DNA of 64,000 nt, from positions 95,557 to 159,556 of IMG/VR virus record IMGVR_UViG_3300047557_002951. One strand, written 5' to 3'. Under the pieces are notes generated by a model. The model did no database searches. It saw only the letters and a list, made by a program, of their open reading frames with translations, and was not told the DNA's origin. The first letter of the stretch is position 1; each line of letters begins with the position of its first letter. The stretch comes from a virus. Made by a program: the position numbers and the translations under genes. Shown in pieces: positions 8,241 through 63,279 of the stretch.

Positions 8241-10272
8241 TTAACCGATGGTTGGAGCAGTAAGAGCAACAGGAGTTGTTTCTGCTGATGCCAAATCCAG
8301 AGGGAAGTTATGTGCGTTCCTCTCATGGAGCACTTCGAAACCAAGATTTGCTCGGTTAAGAATGTCTGCCCAAGTGTTAATCACATGACCTTGACTATCA
8401 AGAAGTGACTGATTAAAGTTAAAACCGTTACTCTGTTTCCTTAAATTTACCATCTTTAAGGAGAGGACTATATCTTCATCCCAGTAGGATGTTGGGCGCT
8501 AGTGTCGTATTACATTCCACGCTTGGAAAACCGACTAGTCTCTGAACCTTTCCAAGAAGCGTCTTGGACTTGGCTGCTGATTACCCATTTATGGAGGGCT
8601 TCCAGCAATTCACCCAAAGTTTACCGTCAAATTGCTAGGACGGGACCCCGACGATTGAGGTTAAATGCCATCGTAGAAACACCAAGAGCAGCGAACCAGA
8701 TTCCAACTACAGGCCATGCAGCAAGGAAGAAGTGTAGACTGCGTGAGTTATTAAAGGAAGCATATTGGAAAATAAGGCGTCCGAAATAACCATGAGCAGC
8801 AACGATGTTATAAGTCTCTTCTTCTTGGCCGAACTTGTAACCATAATTCTGTGACTCTTGCTCAGTTGTTTCACGAACCAAAGAAGAAGTCACGAGCGAT
8901 CCATGCATTGCTGATGCGAGAGAACCACCGAAGACACCAGCCACACCAAGCATGTGGAACGGATGCATAAGAATGTTGTGCTCTGCTTGGAATACAAGCA
9001 TGTAGTTGAAAGTACCAGAGATACCCAGAGGCATCGCATCAGAGAAAGAACCTTGACCGAAAGGATAGACCAGGAATACAGCAGAAGCAGCAGCAACAGG
9101 AGCACTGTAAGCAACGCAGATCCAAGGACGCATACCTAGACGGTATGAAAGTTCCCATTCACGACCCATATAAGCATAAATGCCGATAAGGAAGTGGAAC
9201 ACTACAAGTTGGAAAGGACCACCATTATAGAGCCACTCATCTAGAGAAGCAGCTTCCCAGATGGGGTAAAAGTGCAGTCCAATAGCATTGGACGAAGGAA
9301 CAACAGCACCAGAGATGATGTTGTTTCCGTACATTAAAGAACCAGCAACTGGTTCACGAATCCCGTCTCTTATCCCAATAAAACAGTCATATCTTGCGAC
9401 TTAGACCGTTTCAGTTGACCTATTTGATTTGCTCGTTTTGCGTTTTCTACTCTTCCACCATTTTCTACCCACTCTTTCCACTCATTAATATAAGAAATAC
9501 ATTCTTTAATTCTTTCACTTCTTCTATTTCCCATATGGGGAAGTATTTTTTCCAAAATGAAAAGAACTTTTTCTCTATTTCCTATATGAAGGACATAAAC
9601 TGGTTTTCCTTTGAGTGTTTTTCTATTAGGTACAAAATAGGGTTTATCTACAAAATTACTTAGTTTAGCAACCACATCTTCATCAGTCATAACAAGACGA
9701 ATGTATGGTGCTGGCGGTGCTTTAGAAAAGTCATAACGGTCTTTAGAACGATTATCTATTCCAAAGTATCCTTCACCTTCTAAAATTCCTGCAATCCAAG
9801 TAATTTGTGATTCTGTTAAATCAAGCATTTTGACTTCGCATCTACTGTTATATTTATACAGCAAGTGCGAATAAAAGTCAACTGTGAGATTTGGACTATA
9901 TCTTCACCCTTTAAATTTTTTAAAGGTGCTGGGCACTCTAGCCTGTTATTAAGGGGACTAAACCCCTCAGGTAGTCTCTGAACCTTCCTCAAGTGTACTT
10001 GAGGCTTGGCTGCTGATTGCCTTTCGGTTTCCAGCAATTCACCCAGTTTTAACATCATCCTTACGGATGAAGGACACAGATTAAAGCAGTATGTCTACGG
10101 GAGGTGCTGCAATAAATGCAACAATAAAACAGATAGTTGCCGCAAGAAGGCAAGGAATCATAAGAACTCCGAACCAACCAACATACAACCTATTATCGGT
10201 TGAAGTTACCCAGGAACAGAATTGTTCCCAGAGGTTTTCGCCAGAACGGCGTGAAGCAATTGAAGCAGTCAT
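8241..10272 (-). CDS. psbA: photosystem II D1 protein, three exons (10272-10091, 9368-8658, 8430-8241)
   Basis: Exons of 182+711+190 nt = 1083 nt give a 360-aa D1; junctions restore PPVDI/DGIREP and AFNL/NGFNFNQ; Glu130 form. Confidence 0.97.
8431..8657 (-). ncRNA. group I intron 2 of psbA (227 nt, no ORF)
   Basis: 5' exon ends in U with P1 ACCU/GGGU; P AATTGCTGGAAG, Q AATCAGCAGCC, R TTCAGAGACTA, S AAGATATAGTCC; terminal G at 8431. Confidence 0.93.
9369..10090 (-). mobile_element. group I intron 1 of psbA (722 nt) carrying a homing endonuclease
   Basis: P1 GACAU/GUGUC with U.G pair; P/Q/R/S core at about 9890-10045; terminal G at 9369. Confidence 0.93.
9370..9828 (-). CDS. intron-encoded single-motif LAGLIDADG homing endonuclease
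   Basis: [12 protein letters not shown] motif; start MLDLTE downstream of TATAAATA at 9851-9858. Confidence 0.85.
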
Positions 10273-10294: not shown

Positions 10295-10397
10295 AAGTCC
10301 AGGGGGAACTGGATGGTTACAGTATATCCCACACCACCCTCCAGTGTGGGTATGAGAGACGGATTTTACTTGCCCATTAGTCTCGGTAGGGCAAGAT
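10295..10397 (-). ncRNA. structured psbA 5' leader, PhotoRC-II-like motif
   Basis: Hairpin CTTGCCC/GGGCAAG whose loop GAGAC can pair with GTCTC; hairpin CCCACAC/GTGTGGG whose loop GGAGGG can pair with CCCCC; directly upstream of psbA; family name from recall. Confidence 0.7.
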
Positions 10398-10470
10398 AAA
10401 AAGAAAAGTATTGTATTTTCAATGTTCGGTGATGCAGTTTGTCAGGAAACCCTGACTTCCCTCACCGACT

Positions 10471-17063: not shown

Positions 17064-17126
17064 TCGATTACCAAATAAAAAAGCACCCAAAAAATAGGTG
17101 CTTTCACTCAAGTTATGAGTAAGTTA

Positions 17127-17233
17127 TCAACCAACAATACTATCTCTCCACTCTTCACTCATATTCACCATAATTGCTTCTGCTGCTTCTGGGGTTTCAG
17201 CATATCAGTATAAAACATATTAGTATTTTTCAT
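17127..17233 (-). pseudogene. deletion chimera: gene start (MKNTNMFYT) joined out of frame to the C-terminus of a repeated-domain protein (YAETPEAAEAIMVNMSEEWRDSIVG)
   Basis: Second part closely matches the domain in 36752..37123; frames do not join. Confidence 0.6.
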
Positions 17234-17242
17234 CTGCTCTTA

Positions 17243-17340
17243 AATTGGTTCGCAATACTATTTATAAAAGAAAAGAGGGCATTTCTGCCCTCCAATCTCT
17301 ACCTTAAAGATGCGAACCAATTAAGGCATCATTATTTATA
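17243..17340 (-). ncRNA. late promoter / small RNA / terminator / late promoter cassette, copy 1
   Basis: Shares scaffold with 34744-34837; see findings. Confidence 0.6.
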
Positions 17341-32269: not shown

Positions 32270-32286
32270 AAATTAGAGTTTTATGA

Positions 32287-32362
32287 TCCGGATATTCAGA
32301 TTTGAACTGAAATTATTCCTGCTCCCAAAGCAGGTGCCATGACCAAGTTAGGCGATATCCGG
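32287..32362 (-). tRNA. trnP: tRNA-Pro(UGG)
   Basis: Cloverleaf; anticodon arm CCTGC-TTTGGGA-GCAGG. Confidence 0.9.
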
Positions 32363-32723
32363 ATGTTAATGTATATAGTACCACAAGAACCCAGAATCGT
32401 CAAGCATCTTCTTCATCCTCATATGAACTGGGTTCTTCGAAGAGTTCCACCATTTTCAATTGTAAAACTCTTTCTTGTAATTTTTCTAAGTCTTGTTCAG
32501 TAATTTCGCTCATCACCTAAAAATTTTGCCAATGGATCTTTTTTCGTTTTTACGATTTCACATGCTCTTTTGTAAAACATATTATCTAAGTTCCCAGAAG
32601 CCTCAAAAGTTTCTTTTATCTTAACCCAATTACTATAGGTTCGGTCGTCCATTGAGGCACTCCTGCATATTGATACTAATTATAATCTGCAGGATTTTTA
32701 TGTCAATCTCATGTTAGCGAATC

Positions 32724-33095
32724 TTAATATCCATGATTCATGATTGTCTTTGTGTATTTTCTTAAGATCTCGCCAGCCCTTGAATTTGCCTCATTCTCAC
32801 ATTCACTGCCAGTATCTCCACTCATTTCTTTACCACTTTGTTTTTGATGATAATGAACTAACTCATGAGCAAGAGTCCTATAAACATCTAATGGATGTCT
32901 TTTTGCAGTCTGGACTTTAATTTCATCTGTACCTAAATTAAAACAGCCAAAAGTTTTATTGTCGATAGAAAACTGTGGGTCATCTATAACAACAACTTTA
33001 GGTAAGTTTGTTAGGCCAAGTTCATCCTTTACAAAGTTCATAAAGTCCTTAACCTGGACTTTCTTTGATTCATTTAGAAACTCTCTAAATCTCAT
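32724..33095 (-). CDS. HEXXH zinc metallopeptidase-like late protein
   Basis: TLAHELVH...ENEAN; N-terminus MRFREFLNE. Confidence 0.75.
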   Translation of the reverse strand: MRFREFLNESKKVQVKDFMNFVKDELGLTNLPKVVVIDDPQFSIDNKTFGCFNLGTDEIKVQTAKRHPLDVYRTLAHELVHYHQKQSGKEMSGDTGSECENEANSRAGEILRKYTKTIMNHGY

Positions 33096-33110
33096 GAGTT
33101 TTTTATATAT

Positions 33111-33362
33111 TTATCGAACTTCAAAATCAAGTTTGCGAACTTTGCGTTGTCGTCTTTCTTCTTGCCAGCGAATATCTTCATTTGTCAGAACTCTATTTGA
33201 TTCTTTCTGAACATAAGAATTTAACATGACTATCTTAGATAAATCCATGGCAGATATTTTGTCACCTTTAATGGTTGCCATGTTGAGACAGCCGCAAGAT
33301 CTGGATTGGCCTGGATGCCCAATCACCTCAGTATTGCATTCTTTGCATCTTATTTTTAGCAT
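33111..33362 (-). CDS. Zn-ribbon hypothetical protein
   Basis: CKEC...CGC. Confidence 0.65.
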   Translation of the reverse strand: MLKIRCKECNTEVIGHPGQSRSCGCLNMATIKGDKISAMDLSKIVMLNSYVQKESNRVLTNEDIRWQEERRQRKVRKLDFEVR

Positions 33363-33440
33363 TTTGATTCATAATGTGTATTTGGATCTTATTATTTATC
33401 ATTAAAAAACTCACCTTCTCCACAAGAAGGTGAGTAAAAA

Positions 33441-33511
33441 AGCGGATGATCGGTTCTGCCCCGACGACCTCTGGGTGGAAACCAGAAATTATACTATTTA
33501 ACTACATCCGC
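33441..33511 (-). tRNA. trnG: tRNA-Gly(UCC), atypical T-loop
   Basis: Acceptor GCGGATG/CATCCGC; arm TCTGG-TTTCCAC-CCAGA; T-loop GGCAGAA. Confidence 0.75.
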
Positions 33512-33770
33512 AGTAATAAGGTAATTATACCCTATTTATGATCTTATGTCAAGAGTTTTTTGATACTACTTCAAGATCAGTTCCAATGGCACGAAGCCAG
33601 GTGTTTAGATTTTCCATAAGAAATTCATCTGATGGATTCTCGAAGTTAATACGAATGTCACGGATGGTATCATGATTTTCGTTTCGTGCGGAGTATCCTA
33701 GGTCGTATGAGATGTTCATTTGGGTCTTATATGTTGTTGGAGTTATTATAGCATGTTTGTTGGGGGTTTG

Positions 33771-34730
33771 TCAAGTACTCCACAAATCTTTGGCGTGAAT
33801 TTCGCGGTGACAATTACTACAAACTATTATGCAGTTTTCCAGTTCTTTCTTTTGGCGTTCAAATCCCCAATAACAAAATCGTCTAGAATATGTTGGAGAT
33901 TTTTTACTTGGATCTACATGATGAAACTCTAATGAATTGATGCATTGATCATATCCACACACAGAACAACAACCACCCATATATTCAACTGATTTTTCTT
34001 TTCCCTTTATTCCCCTCTCAACAAAATTTTTACTATCACAAGATTTGCATGTTTTACTATGAGTCCCAGATCCGGTATTTTCTTCTGTGAGAACTATATC
34101 ACATTGTTTACAAGAATTTTTTCCAGTATTTCTACCAGTAAAGATAACATCCGAAAGATTATTCACTAGATTAGCCGAAAATTCTTTTTCTAGTTTCTTC
34201 CTTTTGTTAATTATATTATGTTCTTCTCGGTGGCAATTAGAACAAAGTAAAACACATTTATTCAGTTCATTTCTAATCGTATCCCAAGTCTTATTCATCA
34301 TTTTTGATGGATTAAATTCTTTTTCTTTCGGGTTCAAATGATGAAAATCTAGGGCAGTTAAATTTTTGTCATATCCACATTTTTGACATTGATTTCCTTT
34401 ATACTCTACGCACTTTTGCTTAAAAAACAATCTTTTGTTTAGAGTATTATTGCAATAGCAAGATTTACAGTACGAAGAATAAGTATTTTTATTTTTTCTA
34501 TCATATGCATTTTCTGGAGTTAACTTTGCATTACAAGAACAACAGTATTGATTATTTTTATCTACTCTTTTTGGATAATTATAACCCTGCGTAAAAGATT
34601 TATTTTTAGTTTTTAGATTAAATTTCTTTAACCAGTATCTTATAGTCGTTTGTCCCTTATTAAAATAAAGAGCTAATTCTCTCATGGACATACCTTGTTC
34701 CACAAGAGACGCTAGTAGGTCTCTATTCAA
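33771..34730 (-). CDS. free-standing endonuclease with N-terminal HTH and two tandem HNH domains
   Basis: Two copies of CxxCGYD...L(D/E)FHH..P...ELxxCxxxCSNCHRExH; HTH GMSMRELA...TIRYWL. Confidence 0.85.
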   Translation of the reverse strand: MNRDLLASLVEQGMSMRELALYFNKGQTTIRYWLKKFNLKTKNKSFTQGYNYPKRVDKNNQYCCSCNAKLTPENAYDRKNKNTYSSYCKSCYCNNTLNKRLFFKQKCVEYKGNQCQKCGYDKNLTALDFHHLNPKEKEFNPSKMMNKTWDTIRNELNKCVLLCSNCHREEHNIINKRKKLEKEFSANLVNNLSDVIFTGRNTGKNSCKQCDIVLTEENTGSGTHSKTCKSCDSKNFVERGIKGKEKSVEYMGGCCSVCGYDQCINSLEFHHVDPSKKSPTYSRRFCYWGFERQKKELENCIIVCSNCHREIHAKDLWST

Positions 34731-34743
34731 TTCTTATTCTCCG

Positions 34744-34837
34744 TAGTTGATTGGCATTATTATTTATACAAGAAAAGGAGCATTTCTGCTCCTTTTCCAC
34801 CTTAAAGACGCCAATCAACTAAGGCATTTTTATTTAG
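34744..34837 (-). ncRNA. late promoter / small RNA / terminator / late promoter cassette, copy 2
   Basis: Shares scaffold with 17243-17340; see findings. Confidence 0.6.
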
Positions 34838-34847
34838 TTGTTTTCAA

Positions 34848-34920
34848 CAGGCGCATCTGGATTCGAACCAGAGATGAGGAGGTAGAAGCTCCTAGTGATA
34901 ATCCACTTCACCATGCGCCC
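34848..34920 (-). tRNA. trnR: tRNA-Arg(UCU)
   Basis: Arm AGGAG-CTTCTAC-CTCCT; GGTTCGAATCC. Confidence 0.92.
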
Positions 34921-34961
34921 ATAACAAGACAATCATAACATATTTATGTCATATTGTCAAG

Positions 34962-35241
34962 TCCGGAATGACAGATTCGAACTGTCCCTTGAGCGATTTT
35001 CTTACCACTATAGTTTTCACTACCAATCATAAGATCGTTTGTGGTCTGGACTTTCTCTTTTCCATATCCATAAGGACTTAGGAACCACCTTTTAAGTCTC
35101 TACACCTTCATCTTACGATGCTTGGCTCGGGATTGCCATTTTAAAGGTTTCCCCGAATTTAAGTGGATTCACACACAGAGTTTCCAACTGTGGTGCTCAA
35201 ATTATTTAAGTCGCTTGCCTCTTCCGCTGGGCTAATTCCGG
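34962..35241 (-). tRNA. trnL: tRNA-Leu(UAA), intron-containing (exons 35241-35208 and 35000-34962)
   Basis: Spliced arm AGCGA-CTT/AAAA-TCGCT; acceptor CCGGAAT/ATTCCGG. Confidence 0.88.
35001..35207 (-). ncRNA. group I intron of the trnL(UAA) type (207 nt)
   Basis: Starts AAATAATTTGAGC after U34; core AAATTCGGGGAAACC, GGCAATCCCGAGCC, GTGTAGAGACTT, AAGAGAAAGTCC; ends in G. Confidence 0.9.
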
Positions 35242-35268
35242 AAGTATAAGACTCATAAAAGAGTCTAG

Positions 35269-35340
35269 TGGTTCTGCAGAGAATTGAACTCTGTTCACAG
35301 CTTTATAAGAACTGGGCCTTAACCAATAGGCGACAGAACC
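35269..35340 (-). tRNA. trnI: tRNA-Ile(UAU)
   Basis: Arm CAGTT-CTTATAA-AGCTG; acceptor GGTTCTG/CAGAACC. Confidence 0.85.
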
Positions 35341-35379
35341 AATAAGACAATCGTACCACATAAGAAGTAGATTGTCAAG

Positions 35380-35461
35380 TCCTCGTTTTCAGATTTGAAC
35401 TGAAACTCCGTTAGGAAACGGTTTTTGAGACCGTCGCGGCTACCGATTACGCCAAACGAGG
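35380..35461 (-). tRNA. trnL: tRNA-Leu(CAA)
   Basis: Arm ACGGT-CTCAAAA-ACCGT with variable arm. Confidence 0.9.
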
Positions 35462-61206: not shown

Positions 61207-63279
61207 CTAGGCAATAAGATCAATAAACTGAGAAAGAATTTTCTTGTTCATTTTTTTAGACTCTAGTGACTTTTTGAATGCATTGCGAATAGAAGTTACT
61301 GATGCATCTTCTTCTACTGCAAATTCAGTGGATGAATTAAGTGCTCCAGAATAAATTCCAAAATAAGAATCATATCCAGCACATCGAATGGCACATGATC
61401 GATGCTTTTTCCATTCATCCATAATTTTATCATAAGAATTCAATTTATTGTTATTATTCAAGTGATTACGAACAAATCCAGAAATTTCACCAGCAGTAAG
61501 AAGGCGAATTCCAATAAAATTCACTTGGGAAAATACATCCTTAAGATGACGAAGTAATACATCAGTAAATTCATGTGAGGCATAATATGAATATCTGGGG
61601 AATCGATAAGTAGTCTTCAGTTTTTTGTCTTTCAAATAACAATCATCGCCAATTCCACGCATTCCAACATTCGTTACCATGGGTAGAGCACTTGCTTCAC
61701 CATCAGTAAGAACTACACACTGAACTTTTTGTACTTTTGTTCTACTTACAAATTCTGGAATAATATAATGCAAAGAGACCAAAGATTCATTCAGAGGAGT
61801 TCCAGAAAGATTCAACTCATTTGGAATTGAATATGTGCAATAGTTACAAGTGTGAGCATATGCCAAACGATATAGATTTTGCATATGATTTTCCAATGTT
61901 TGTGAATTGACTGTGCTGGAAATTACATTGAGAAGATTGAAATTGTTATCAATTACGATTGAATTCAATGGATCTAACGATTTATTATTATAATTGTAAG
62001 ACCAAGAATTAGTAAAGGCATAAACCTCAAATGGAATAGATACTTTCTTACAAAACCAGATAAGATTGAAGAGTTGCTTGCATGTATCTAAAATGATGCG
62101 ATCCATAGATCCAGACCAATCTAGAATAAAAATCAATCCATGATTTTTCCCATCTTCAAGGGTAATAACTTTTTTGAAAATATCATCATTAAACTTATAA
62201 GTGTGCAAAGAATTGCAATCCAAAATTCCTGTTTTTGATTCTGATGCCCTGGAGTATGATTCTGCTGCTTTTTTACACTCAAATTCTTTGACGAGATAGT
62301 TTACTTCTTTTCTGGCAGAAGACTTGAATTTCTTATAATCCAAATCCACAGAAGTAAAATCATTCCCATGATTATTACTCCAATAACGATTGCACTTTGT
62401 ATGAATCTGTTTTGGGGTCACAATAATTTTACTTAGATCAAGTTTTGGGATATTAAGGTAATTAATTTTTTGTCCCGTATTTGCAGATAGTTTATTGATT
62501 GCTTGCTGCAAAGAAGAAGAAGTCTTGACATATCCAGATTTTCCAGCTGGATCATAATCCCCATCAGAAGAATTTTGATTTTTTCCACTTTGCTGTTGTC
62601 CGCCATTCGTGGCATTAGATTGCGATTCCGATTGTTGATTACTATCAGTTGGTGAAACTTGCATAGGTTCACCAGAAGTGCCTTGTCCAGATCCAACCCC
62701 AAAAGAAATAGAATCTAAATTCTTCTGAGTTTCCATTTCCTTGCAATATTCATATAACTTTTCCGCACAACGAATGGAATCTTCAAATGTCTCAGCATCT
62801 GCAATTTCATCCAGAAGTTCCTTTTCTTTTTCTGTGAACTGTATCTCGACAAAATGTCCAATCTTAAAGTATAGATTGATGCGATCTGCTAGATTATATT
62901 TGTCTAAATTTACACCAGAAATTCCAAAGAAGTTATCATCATTTAGTTGTTTATATCCACCAAAGAATGTCTTCTTAAGTCCTGGATATCTACGCTTCAT
63001 GAGTTTTTCGATGCGAGCATCCTCAGTCACATTTAGAAAGTGCATTGGAACACTGGTCAACTCAGTCCAATCTGTATTTGGAGTATAAATCGCATGTGCA
63101 CACTCATGACTGAGAAGAAGTTCATAAACAAGATCAGATGCTCGTTCCCAAATTGGCAGAGTCAAAGTCCTAGTCTCAACATTGAAACAAGCGGTATCTA
63201 CATTTGCATTCTCAATGTTTAAATTTTCCGTGGCAAGAAGCCTAGCAAGATTACCACGAATTTCATGATTGTGCTGCAT
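61207..63279 (-). CDS. metallopeptidase-like N-domain plus VWA domain protein (MoxR partner)
   Basis: HECAH, NVTEDARIE, MIDAS DWSGS, GTPL, LTDGE. Confidence 0.85.
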   Translation of the reverse strand: MQHNHEIRGNLARLLATENLNIENANVDTACFNVETRTLTLPIWERASDLVYELLLSHECAHAIYTPNTDWTELTSVPMHFLNVTEDARIEKLMKRRYPGLKKTFFGGYKQLNDDNFFGISGVNLDKYNLADRINLYFKIGHFVEIQFTEKEKELLDEIADAETFEDSIRCAEKLYEYCKEMETQKNLDSISFGVGSGQGTSGEPMQVSPTDSNQQSESQSNATNGGQQQSGKNQNSSDGDYDPAGKSGYVKTSSSLQQAINKLSANTGQKINYLNIPKLDLSKIIVTPKQIHTKCNRYWSNNHGNDFTSVDLDYKKFKSSARKEVNYLVKEFECKKAAESYSRASESKTGILDCNSLHTYKFNDDIFKKVITLEDGKNHGLIFILDWSGSMDRIILDTCKQLFNLIWFCKKVSIPFEVYAFTNSWSYNYNNKSLDPLNSIVIDNNFNLLNVISSTVNSQTLENHMQNLYRLAYAHTCNYCTYSIPNELNLSGTPLNESLVSLHYIIPEFVSRTKVQKVQCVVLTDGEASALPMVTNVGMRGIGDDCYLKDKKLKTTYRFPRYSYYASHEFTDVLLRHLKDVFSQVNFIGIRLLTAGEISGFVRNHLNNNNKLNSYDKIMDEWKKHRSCAIRCAGYDSYFGIYSGALNSSTEFAVEEDASVTSIRNAFKKSLESKKMNKKILSQFIDLIA

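Follow-up and report, generated by a model that had tools for sequence, protein, structure and literature searches.

The stretch of DNA analysed here (the window) comprises the final 64 kb of a viral record of 159.6 kb (G000, positions 95557–159556) and belongs to a T4-like cyanophage. Nearly all of its genes lie on the minus strand. Two group I introns split its psbA gene, and it also contains the RNA motifs PhotoRC-II and wcaG and a cluster of tRNA genes. The two introns (Rfam, 82–87 bits) and the PhotoRC-II motif are found in the psbA region at 8439–8667, 9871–10100 and 10314–10407. In the tRNA cluster (32285–35461), ARAGORN reports a tRNA-Pro at 32285–32363 that is absent from the Rfam results at the gathering score, and Rfam reports a tRNA at 33441–33511 that is absent from the ARAGORN calls.

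The window contains two copies of a module of ~115 bases, referred to here as the cassette, which is found in front of homing endonuclease genes (HEGs) of T4-like cyanophages. Copy 1 (17340–17231, minus strand) consists, in this order, of a late-promoter box (P1), a hairpin (SL1), an intrinsic terminator, a second late promoter (P2), a leader, a Shine-Dalgarno sequence (SD) and an ATG. The P1 box, TATAAATA (17340–17333), starts 2 nt past the stop codon (17345–17343) of the upstream gene on the same strand, which encodes a 498-aa porin. The SL1 hairpin (17328–17300), recognized from its fold and from the covariation of its stem in the family, follows 4 nt after P1 and is formed by a 5′ strand UGCCUUAA (17328–17321), a 13-nt loop UUGGUUCGCAUCU (17320–17308) and a 3′ strand UUAAGGUA (17307–17300). 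Next come the intrinsic terminator identified by a terminator scan (17293–17267; an 8-bp stem, GGAGGGCA-GAAA-UGCCCUCU, and a U run), the P2 promoter TATAAATA (17266–17259) and, 4 nt after P2, the leader UGCGAACCAAUU (17254–17243), which is followed by a U, the SD AAGAG (17241–17237), CAG and the ATG (17233–17231). The region antisense to the leader, UGCCUUAAUUGGUUCGCA (17311–17328), forms a duplex of −23.7 kcal/mol with its target UGCGAACCAAUUUAAGAGCA (17235–17254), which includes the SD and begins approximately at the predicted start of P2 transcription; P2 thus lies between the two arms of this helix. The 12-nt core of the duplex had been noticed in the preliminary description of the locus: the variable segment at 17311–17322 is indeed the exact reverse complement of the leader at 17243–17254, far beyond chance expectation, and belongs to the very few perfect inverted repeats of at least 12 nt in the 64 kb whose arms are more than 25 nt apart. 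A small late RNA of ~60 nt, comprising SL1 and the terminator hairpin, is predicted at 17267–17328, its start being derived from the spacing to P1 and its end from the U run.

The reading frame that begins at the copy 1 ATG (17165–17233) has only 22 codons and is a remnant of a GIY-YIG/NUMOD3 HEG. Its first 9 codons match those of intact 209-aa genes in two other loci of the family (L024 and L102), and ~1.07 kb present in L024 is missing from the window, with the deletion junction near 17206/17207. Thus, the HEG of copy 1 has evidently been deleted, leaving the cassette as an orphan. Past this orphan, a terminator (17079–17105) and then a sigma-70-like promoter (17044–17016) are found ahead of a 342-aa open reading frame (ORF). 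The porin-like gene on the other side, in the segment 16016–18839, is 75% identical in DNA sequence to a gene annotated as ‘porin’ in phage S-SRM01.

Copy 2 (34838–34728, minus strand) lies downstream of a tRNA-Arg gene and, as had been suggested earlier, combines the same constant scaffold (34799–34827, by pattern match) with a different variable segment, which likewise has its complement in the leader next to it: UAGUUGAUUGGC at 34810–34821 pairs with GCCAAUCAACUA at 34744–34755. Its P1 box ACTAAATA (34831–34838) is found 9 nt past the tRNA-Arg; it is followed by SL1 (34799–34825, by folding), a terminator hairpin with 11-bp, 100% complementary arms (34771–34798, by folding), the P2 box TATAAATA (34761–34768), again between the arms, and the leader target (34739–34757, from the read-through fold), which reads AUGCCAAUCAACUA, then C, then GGAG. 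The helix takes in the first two bases of the SD (GG of GGAG). The gene behind copy 2 (33771–34730, minus strand) starts with TTG and encodes a 319-aa double-HNH HEG that matches both the Pfam and the PHROG HNH families (best E = 2e-49). The scaffold pattern occurs twice in the window, compared with 0.01 occurrences expected, and both the pattern search and a covariance model found only these two copies in the whole genome.

Many further copies were retrieved from IMG/VR by three pattern scans, each anchored on different parts of the cassette. A covariance model built on the first 40 copies gave 123 hits in 88 loci, and a detector that used only P2, a hairpin and an arm–leader duplex of −18 kcal/mol or lower yielded 119 distinct cassettes. 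In all, more than 120 further copies are found in metagenomic cyanophage contigs and one in a cultured phage, the freshwater Synechococcus phage S-SRM01, which was the only named phage genome recovered in BLAST searches with either a 3-kb locus or the cassette. The family has 41 distinct 5′ arms, each of which matches its own leader, so that the co-variation of segment and leader that the preliminary description had looked for in additional copies is decisively present. In an Rfam scan of the window at the gathering score, no family, the C4 antisense RNA included, matched the cassette; the best sub-threshold hits in a permissive Rfam scan of the locus were at chance level (E ≥ 0.05) and far under the cut-offs.

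Some loci carry up to four or five cassettes. L250 (7.8 kb), L160 (14.4 kb), L102 and L211 each contain three to five units of a cassette and an endonuclease gene within a few kilobases, every unit with a different arm, and resemble endonuclease islands. None of the 15 loci holding 2–4 cassettes has an arm shared between its members; this is not a significant sign of selection for orthogonality within a genome, as a rough estimate gives 2–3 shared pairs expected by chance in these 15 loci. In the genome G005, the terminator sequences suggest arm classes one position apart for the two cassettes.

In nearly all copies, the gene behind the cassette is a HEG. Of the 123 covariance-model hits, 114 have an ORF of at least 100 aa directly downstream and five have a short remnant. 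Among the 111 distinct downstream products, 88 have hits to PHROG 314 (‘homing endonuclease’) and 45 to PHROG 655; Pfam searches recognized NUMOD3 in 59, GIY-YIG in 9 and HNH in 2. A single arm class can serve several unrelated HEG families (GIY-YIG-like and HNH).

Pairing between the arm and the leader extends over ~18–20 nt and involves the 5′ strand of SL1 and most of its loop on one side and the leader, from its start through the SD, on the other, ending 2–6 nt short of the start codon. The RNA body opens with UGC, UAC or CGC, matched by GCA, GUA or GCG immediately ahead of the start codon; the CC of the arm pairs with the two G's of AAGAG, a combination that switches to U-A in 5–6 copies; and one position between the SD and the AUG is G-C in 72 copies, G-U in 34 and A-U in 9. 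The helix therefore extends, co-varying pairs included, past the 12-nt segment and has the SD inside it. A duplex that covers the SD and co-varies through it bears the signature of translational occlusion.

In alignment A3, whose fitting to the modelled helix somewhat inflates the pair counts, 95.8% of the cells of the arm–leader helix and the terminator stem together are paired, compared with 72.3% after shuffling and no more than 44% with the partner columns displaced, 22 of the 23 pairs change on both sides (616 cells versus 155 in shuffles) and the covariation score is 0.633 versus 0.19. Tests that do not depend on this alignment were used alongside. The mean duplex energy is −23.3 ± 2.1 kcal/mol for cognate arms and leaders versus −11.3 ± 3.9 kcal/mol for non-cognate ones, and none of 2000 permutations of the partners reached the observed mean. 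By eye, the arm classes are set apart by substitutions that correspond on the two sides of the helix and by two single-base-pair deletions that do so as well. Combinations of the G:U type are found 76 times and those of the A:C type only 9 times; tolerance of the former and avoidance of the latter indicate that the arms pair as RNA transcribed from the sense strand, not as DNA.

The terminator stem that lies between the arms is paired in 99.1% of cells, with double changes in 5 of 5 pairs. The SL1 stem, in turn, occurs in the variants CCUUAA/UUAAGG, CCUGA/UCAGG, CCUAA/UUAGG, UGCUU/AAGCA and UAUCUG/CAGAUA. In a plain MAFFT alignment, made without fitting to the structure, double changes are seen in 4 of the 5 outer pairs of SL1, in 12 cells versus 1.5 expected, a number that none of 500 shuffles reached. 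At an inner position of the stem (U-A in 45 copies, G-C in 40, A-U in 2), the intramolecular partner follows by Watson-Crick changes, whereas the partner of the same base in the leader mostly stays U, giving G:U 32 times. Thus, SL1 and the arm–leader helix are two conformations of one 5′ strand, both of them under selection. The 3′ strand of SL1 resembles the SD region (UUUAAGGU versus UUUAAGAG). Of the fold proposed for the scaffold in the preliminary description, the CCUUA/UAAGG hairpin is borne out by both folding and covariation, whereas the GATGC/GCATC pseudoknot finds no support: across 120 copies, its columns are paired in 65.8% of cases versus 64.5% after shuffling.

Two other features of the SL1 region were considered and set aside. 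The body of the RNA often begins as (A/G)UG CCU UAA (e.g. at 17321–17329), resembling a mini-ORF of two codons at the predicted 5′ end; the variants AUACC, ACGCC and AAGCC break its frame and the varying base co-varies with the leader, so that the mini-ORF is probably a by-product of the pairing constraint. By eye, most loops seem to begin with UUGG, CUGA or CUUG, a YUNR-type U-turn pattern that is too degenerate to serve as evidence.

Folding gave two hairpins for the RNA from P1 to the terminator, with −25.7 kcal/mol (z = −4.0) in copy 1 and −25.3 kcal/mol (z = −4.9) in copy 2. In RNA that reads through the terminator, the SD becomes part of a long-range helix of 17–18 bp, with −42.5 kcal/mol (z = −6.7) in copy 1, where AAGAG is buried, and −41.3 kcal/mol (z = −6.4) in copy 2, where the GG of GGAG is buried. 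On their own, the P2 leaders are unstructured (−1.8 kcal/mol in copy 1 and 0 in copy 2). Pairing in trans, once the cost of opening SL1 is paid, has a calculated net energy of −12.7 kcal/mol in copy 1 and −15.7 kcal/mol in copy 2, compared with −2.3 and −2.1 kcal/mol for the crossed combinations.

P2 is TATAAATA in all full cassettes found, a uniformity to be read with the fact that two of the three scan patterns required this sequence. The upstream box is more variable. Among the 119 cassettes that were detected without using it, 113 have an NNTAAATA box ending 1–7 nt ahead of the first paired base, versus a background of 0.9%, and in 87 the box ends exactly 4 nt before that base. Its usual sequence is the weaker-looking NATAAATA or CTAAATA, and TATAAATA accounts for just 19 of the 113, which, set beside the uniform P2, counts against a separate P1 RNA. 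NATAAATA is the published cyanophage late promoter (PMC2984593). In the whole genome G000, N[AC]TAAATA is found 66 times on the coding strand versus 9 times on the other strand, mostly 15–45 nt upstream of ORF starts, and NCTAAATA alone is found 25 times versus 0. Thus, NATAAATA and CTAAATA both resemble late promoters of this phage; P1 itself is a predicted promoter. Late transcripts of T4 begin ~6 nt past the box. With this spacing, the complementarity would start where the P1 transcript is predicted to begin, and the leader target where the P2 transcript is predicted to begin.

This anatomy, with its three helices that co-vary at the RNA level, its conserved P1 box and its link to HEGs, suggests that the cassette is a portable control region of the free-standing HEGs of T4-like cyanophages that limits their translation by RNA–RNA pairing; as an explanation of the whole, small RNA included, we hold this to be somewhat more probable than all its alternatives. 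Its parts differ in strength. That pairing of the arm with the leader represses, rather than stabilizes, the HEG message is very probable. The existence of a discrete RNA started at P1 and acting in trans is a closer call, and we lean only slightly towards it. In the proposed mechanism, only RNA started at P2 would lack the masking arm and have a free SD. The arm would be supplied by a separate late RNA of ~60 nt that runs from P1 through SL1 to the terminator, which would stop the RNA polymerase and allow the small RNA to accumulate. This RNA would dock on the P2 mRNA by its loop and then open its own stem, displacing the SL1 3′ strand, a putative mimic of the SD region, so that HEG output would be capped in trans. 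A second supply would operate in cis, where a transcript reading through the terminator would mask itself in the classical T-even way.

The most serious competitor is masking in cis alone: transcripts leaking in from upstream would fold the arm onto the leader and the SD, only the RNA started at P2 would be translated, and P1 and SL1 would be incidental, e.g. a promoter-like, stop-codon-rich box and a stabilizer of the 3′ end of the upstream mRNA. Such masking is established for I-TevI, I-TevII, I-TevIII, segB and mobE of Aeh1 (PMC2988022), hairpins enclosing TATAAATA are known from metagenomic HEGs (PMC2677866), and the SD is buried in the read-through fold. Moreover, the cis fold is the thermodynamic optimum of the read-through RNA, and a terminator, a nested late promoter and a masking arm would also fit a better insulated cis mask. 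It leaves unexplained, however, why 113 of 119 cassettes have a late-promoter box at a fixed spacing ahead of the 5′ arm, why the predicted start site of P1 coincides with the onset of the complementarity and why the SL1 3′ strand follows the 5′ strand by stricter Watson-Crick rules than the leader does; and a terminator between the arms leaves less RNA for the mask to act on. The inter-arm terminator, P1 and SL1 together make up a complete small transcription unit, which a pure cis mask would not need and which favours a late antisense RNA. Masking in cis alone is rather unlikely in our judgement, though it is the alternative that we take most seriously.

The remaining two alternatives fare considerably worse. 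A positive or processing role, in which the duplex at the 5′ end would protect the mRNA from 5′-end-dependent decay or create a site for double-strand-specific cleavage that determines how much HEG mRNA is present, would agree with a target that starts right at the predicted 5′ end of the P2 mRNA and with the processing of T4 and Aeh1 HEG transcripts by RNase E (PMC2988022); we regard it as improbable because the duplex spans the SD and co-varies through it, and the P2 leader lacks any inhibitory structure to be opened. The complementarity might also act at the level of DNA, as a cruciform or recombination site through which cassettes are shuffled or as an operator bound by the endonuclease. 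I-TevI does repress its own late promoter through an operator (PMC2988022), and the cassette has clearly been exchanged among insertion sites and among HEG families. In a DNA duplex, G:U and A:C would be equivalent, in conflict with their counts of 76 and 9; the same arm class is found before GIY-YIG-like and HNH HEGs, so that the arms are not protein-specific sites; and compensatory deletions of single base pairs, noted by eye, keep the arms in register. This makes a role of the repeat in DNA the least probable reading.

If the small RNA exists, it would be diffusible, and a resident cassette could shut off incoming endonucleases that share its arm class. One may then speculate that each free-standing HEG comes with its own late trans antisense RNA of ~60 nt, that the family forms a library of at least 40 mutually orthogonal riboregulator pairs and that resident cassettes, orphan copy 1 included, provide RNA-based immunity to homing in co-infections, a tentative proposal to which we give rather less than even credence. 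A constant scaffold with a variable segment is also to be expected from neutral compensatory drift, without selection for separate specificities: an element that is bound only to stay complementary will drift by compensation while its promoters and SD remain fixed, so that the variety of arms need not be an evolved specificity. Searches of the window's genome for additional targets gave no further 12-nt matches and a single 10-nt match, which lies inside a coding sequence and was set aside.

Two orphan units, L069:1578–1696 and L086:682–800, consist of a P1 box, SL1 and a terminator, followed by a degenerate TATAAAAA. Both lack a complementary leader and an endonuclease gene and, like copy 2, lie downstream of a tRNA. 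The arm of the L086 orphan is absent from all other copies. Candidate trans targets of these orphans on their contigs (16 kb and 5 kb only) were limited to the arm's own opposite strand or a match with one mismatch and were rejected.

The core of this arrangement has a precedent in the endonuclease genes of T-even phages: a translational mask that encloses a late promoter. Hairpins that sequester the ribosome-binding site and enclose a late promoter have been described for I-TevI, I-TevII, I-TevIII, segB, Aeh1 mobE and the T4 genes e and soc (PMC2988022). As in these phages, the 5′ arm of the cassette lies upstream of the late promoter and the 3′ arm covers the ribosome-binding site, the late promoter is found between the arms, late transcripts would lack the 5′ arm and the gene downstream is a HEG. 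Unlike the T-even masks, the ‘loop’ of the cassette contains a complete intrinsic terminator, its 5′ arm is presented in a conserved local hairpin with a second late-promoter box directly in front, and the cassette is a shared, shuffled module with at least 41 arm variants. At the sequence level, what goes beyond the known mask is the inter-arm terminator, the P1 box at its fixed spacing and the independently co-varying SL1. With a promoter motif at a fixed distance, a co-varying hairpin that carries a recognition loop and a terminator after the body, the cassette has, judged by sequence, the parts of a small-RNA gene.

Hairpins in 5′ untranslated regions (UTRs) of free-standing endonuclease genes in ‘fractured gene’ loci were reported from ocean metagenomes by Dassa et al. 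(2009; PMC2677866); 10 of the 16 include TATAAATA, and two conserved motifs are mutually complementary. These hairpins are read there only as cis-acting translational hairpins, and in the accessible portions of the paper neither an upstream promoter nor an inner terminator, local hairpin or small RNA is mentioned (PMC2677866). Like the cassette, they lie upstream of HEG start codons, and one of the loci described there keeps its hairpin after the loss of the HEG, as does copy 1. The hairpins of Dassa et al. fit the cassette, a likeness drawn from their description and not from motif sequences.

Other antisense systems offer more distant parallels. The c4 antisense RNA of phages P1 and P7, reportedly described by Citron and Schuster in 1990 and listed in PMC12197685, is said to be a small structured RNA encoded on the same strand as its target and just upstream of it. 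Its loops reportedly base-pair around the ribosome-binding site of the gene downstream, and its relatives are said to differ by matched changes in loop and target; it is reportedly processed from the same transcript as the target and controls an antirepressor operon in temperate phages. The cassette resembles c4 in having a predicted same-strand upstream RNA with a loop directed against a ribosome-binding region and matched loop and target changes among relatives, but has no sequence or Rfam relationship to it. In type I toxin-antitoxin pairs such as tisB/istR-1 and zor/orz, an adjacent short RNA keeps a potentially harmful protein from being translated, through ~18–20 nt of complementarity to the 5′ UTR; these antisense RNAs are encoded divergently, in bacterial chromosomes. 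The cassette would share with such pairs a short RNA beside the gene that it controls, the ~18–20 nt of complementarity to the 5′ UTR and, if HEGs are toxic, as we assume, the nature of the target; unlike in type I pairs, both cassette RNAs are on one strand and both are predicted late phage transcripts. In the cyanophage S-PM2, CfrI is an opposite-strand antisense RNA of ~225 nt that spans the region from psbA to an endonuclease gene (PMC2984593; PMC12197685). It is similar to the putative RNA described here in being a cyanophage non-coding RNA linked to a HEG but has an unrelated architecture. To our knowledge, CfrI is the only antisense RNA reported so far in T4-like phages. A survey of the literature for cyanophage transcript maps covering the cassette found none.

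HEGs need to be expressed enough to spread and too little to harm the phage, and the known T-even answer to this problem is a cis hairpin. If a diffusible antisense RNA is indeed made from the cassette, it would apparently be the first small-RNA family in lytic T4-like phages that is dedicated to the control of selfish genes, and its dozens of co-evolved, orthogonal loop–leader pairs would constitute a natural set of parts. Even if the cassette acts in cis only, it is a sharp marker of endonuclease genes and their remnants.

Experimental access is given by S-SRM01, the cultured phage that carries the cassette. Its cassette is complete (82.9 bits), has the outer box GATAAATA and occupies positions 62403–62523 of MW015081.1; together with the gene that follows, it spans positions 62403–63273 of that record, which correspond to L254:1136–2006. 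The product of the gene behind the cassette (QPX48079.1) starts with MVNPNRFYTYAYLRED, like the GIY-YIG/NUMOD3 endonucleases of this family, so that its deposited annotation as ‘translation initiation factor 2’ is probably wrong. Two other loci have proteins of ~170 aa behind bona fide cassettes (L107:5258–5788 and L135:228–731), starting with MQKVSVQALNECFN and MQEINVQSLNKFFN, respectively. The L107 protein had no meaningful match in Pfam or PHROG, with one sub-threshold Pfam hit (E = 0.005), and these two proteins may represent an undescribed endonuclease family.
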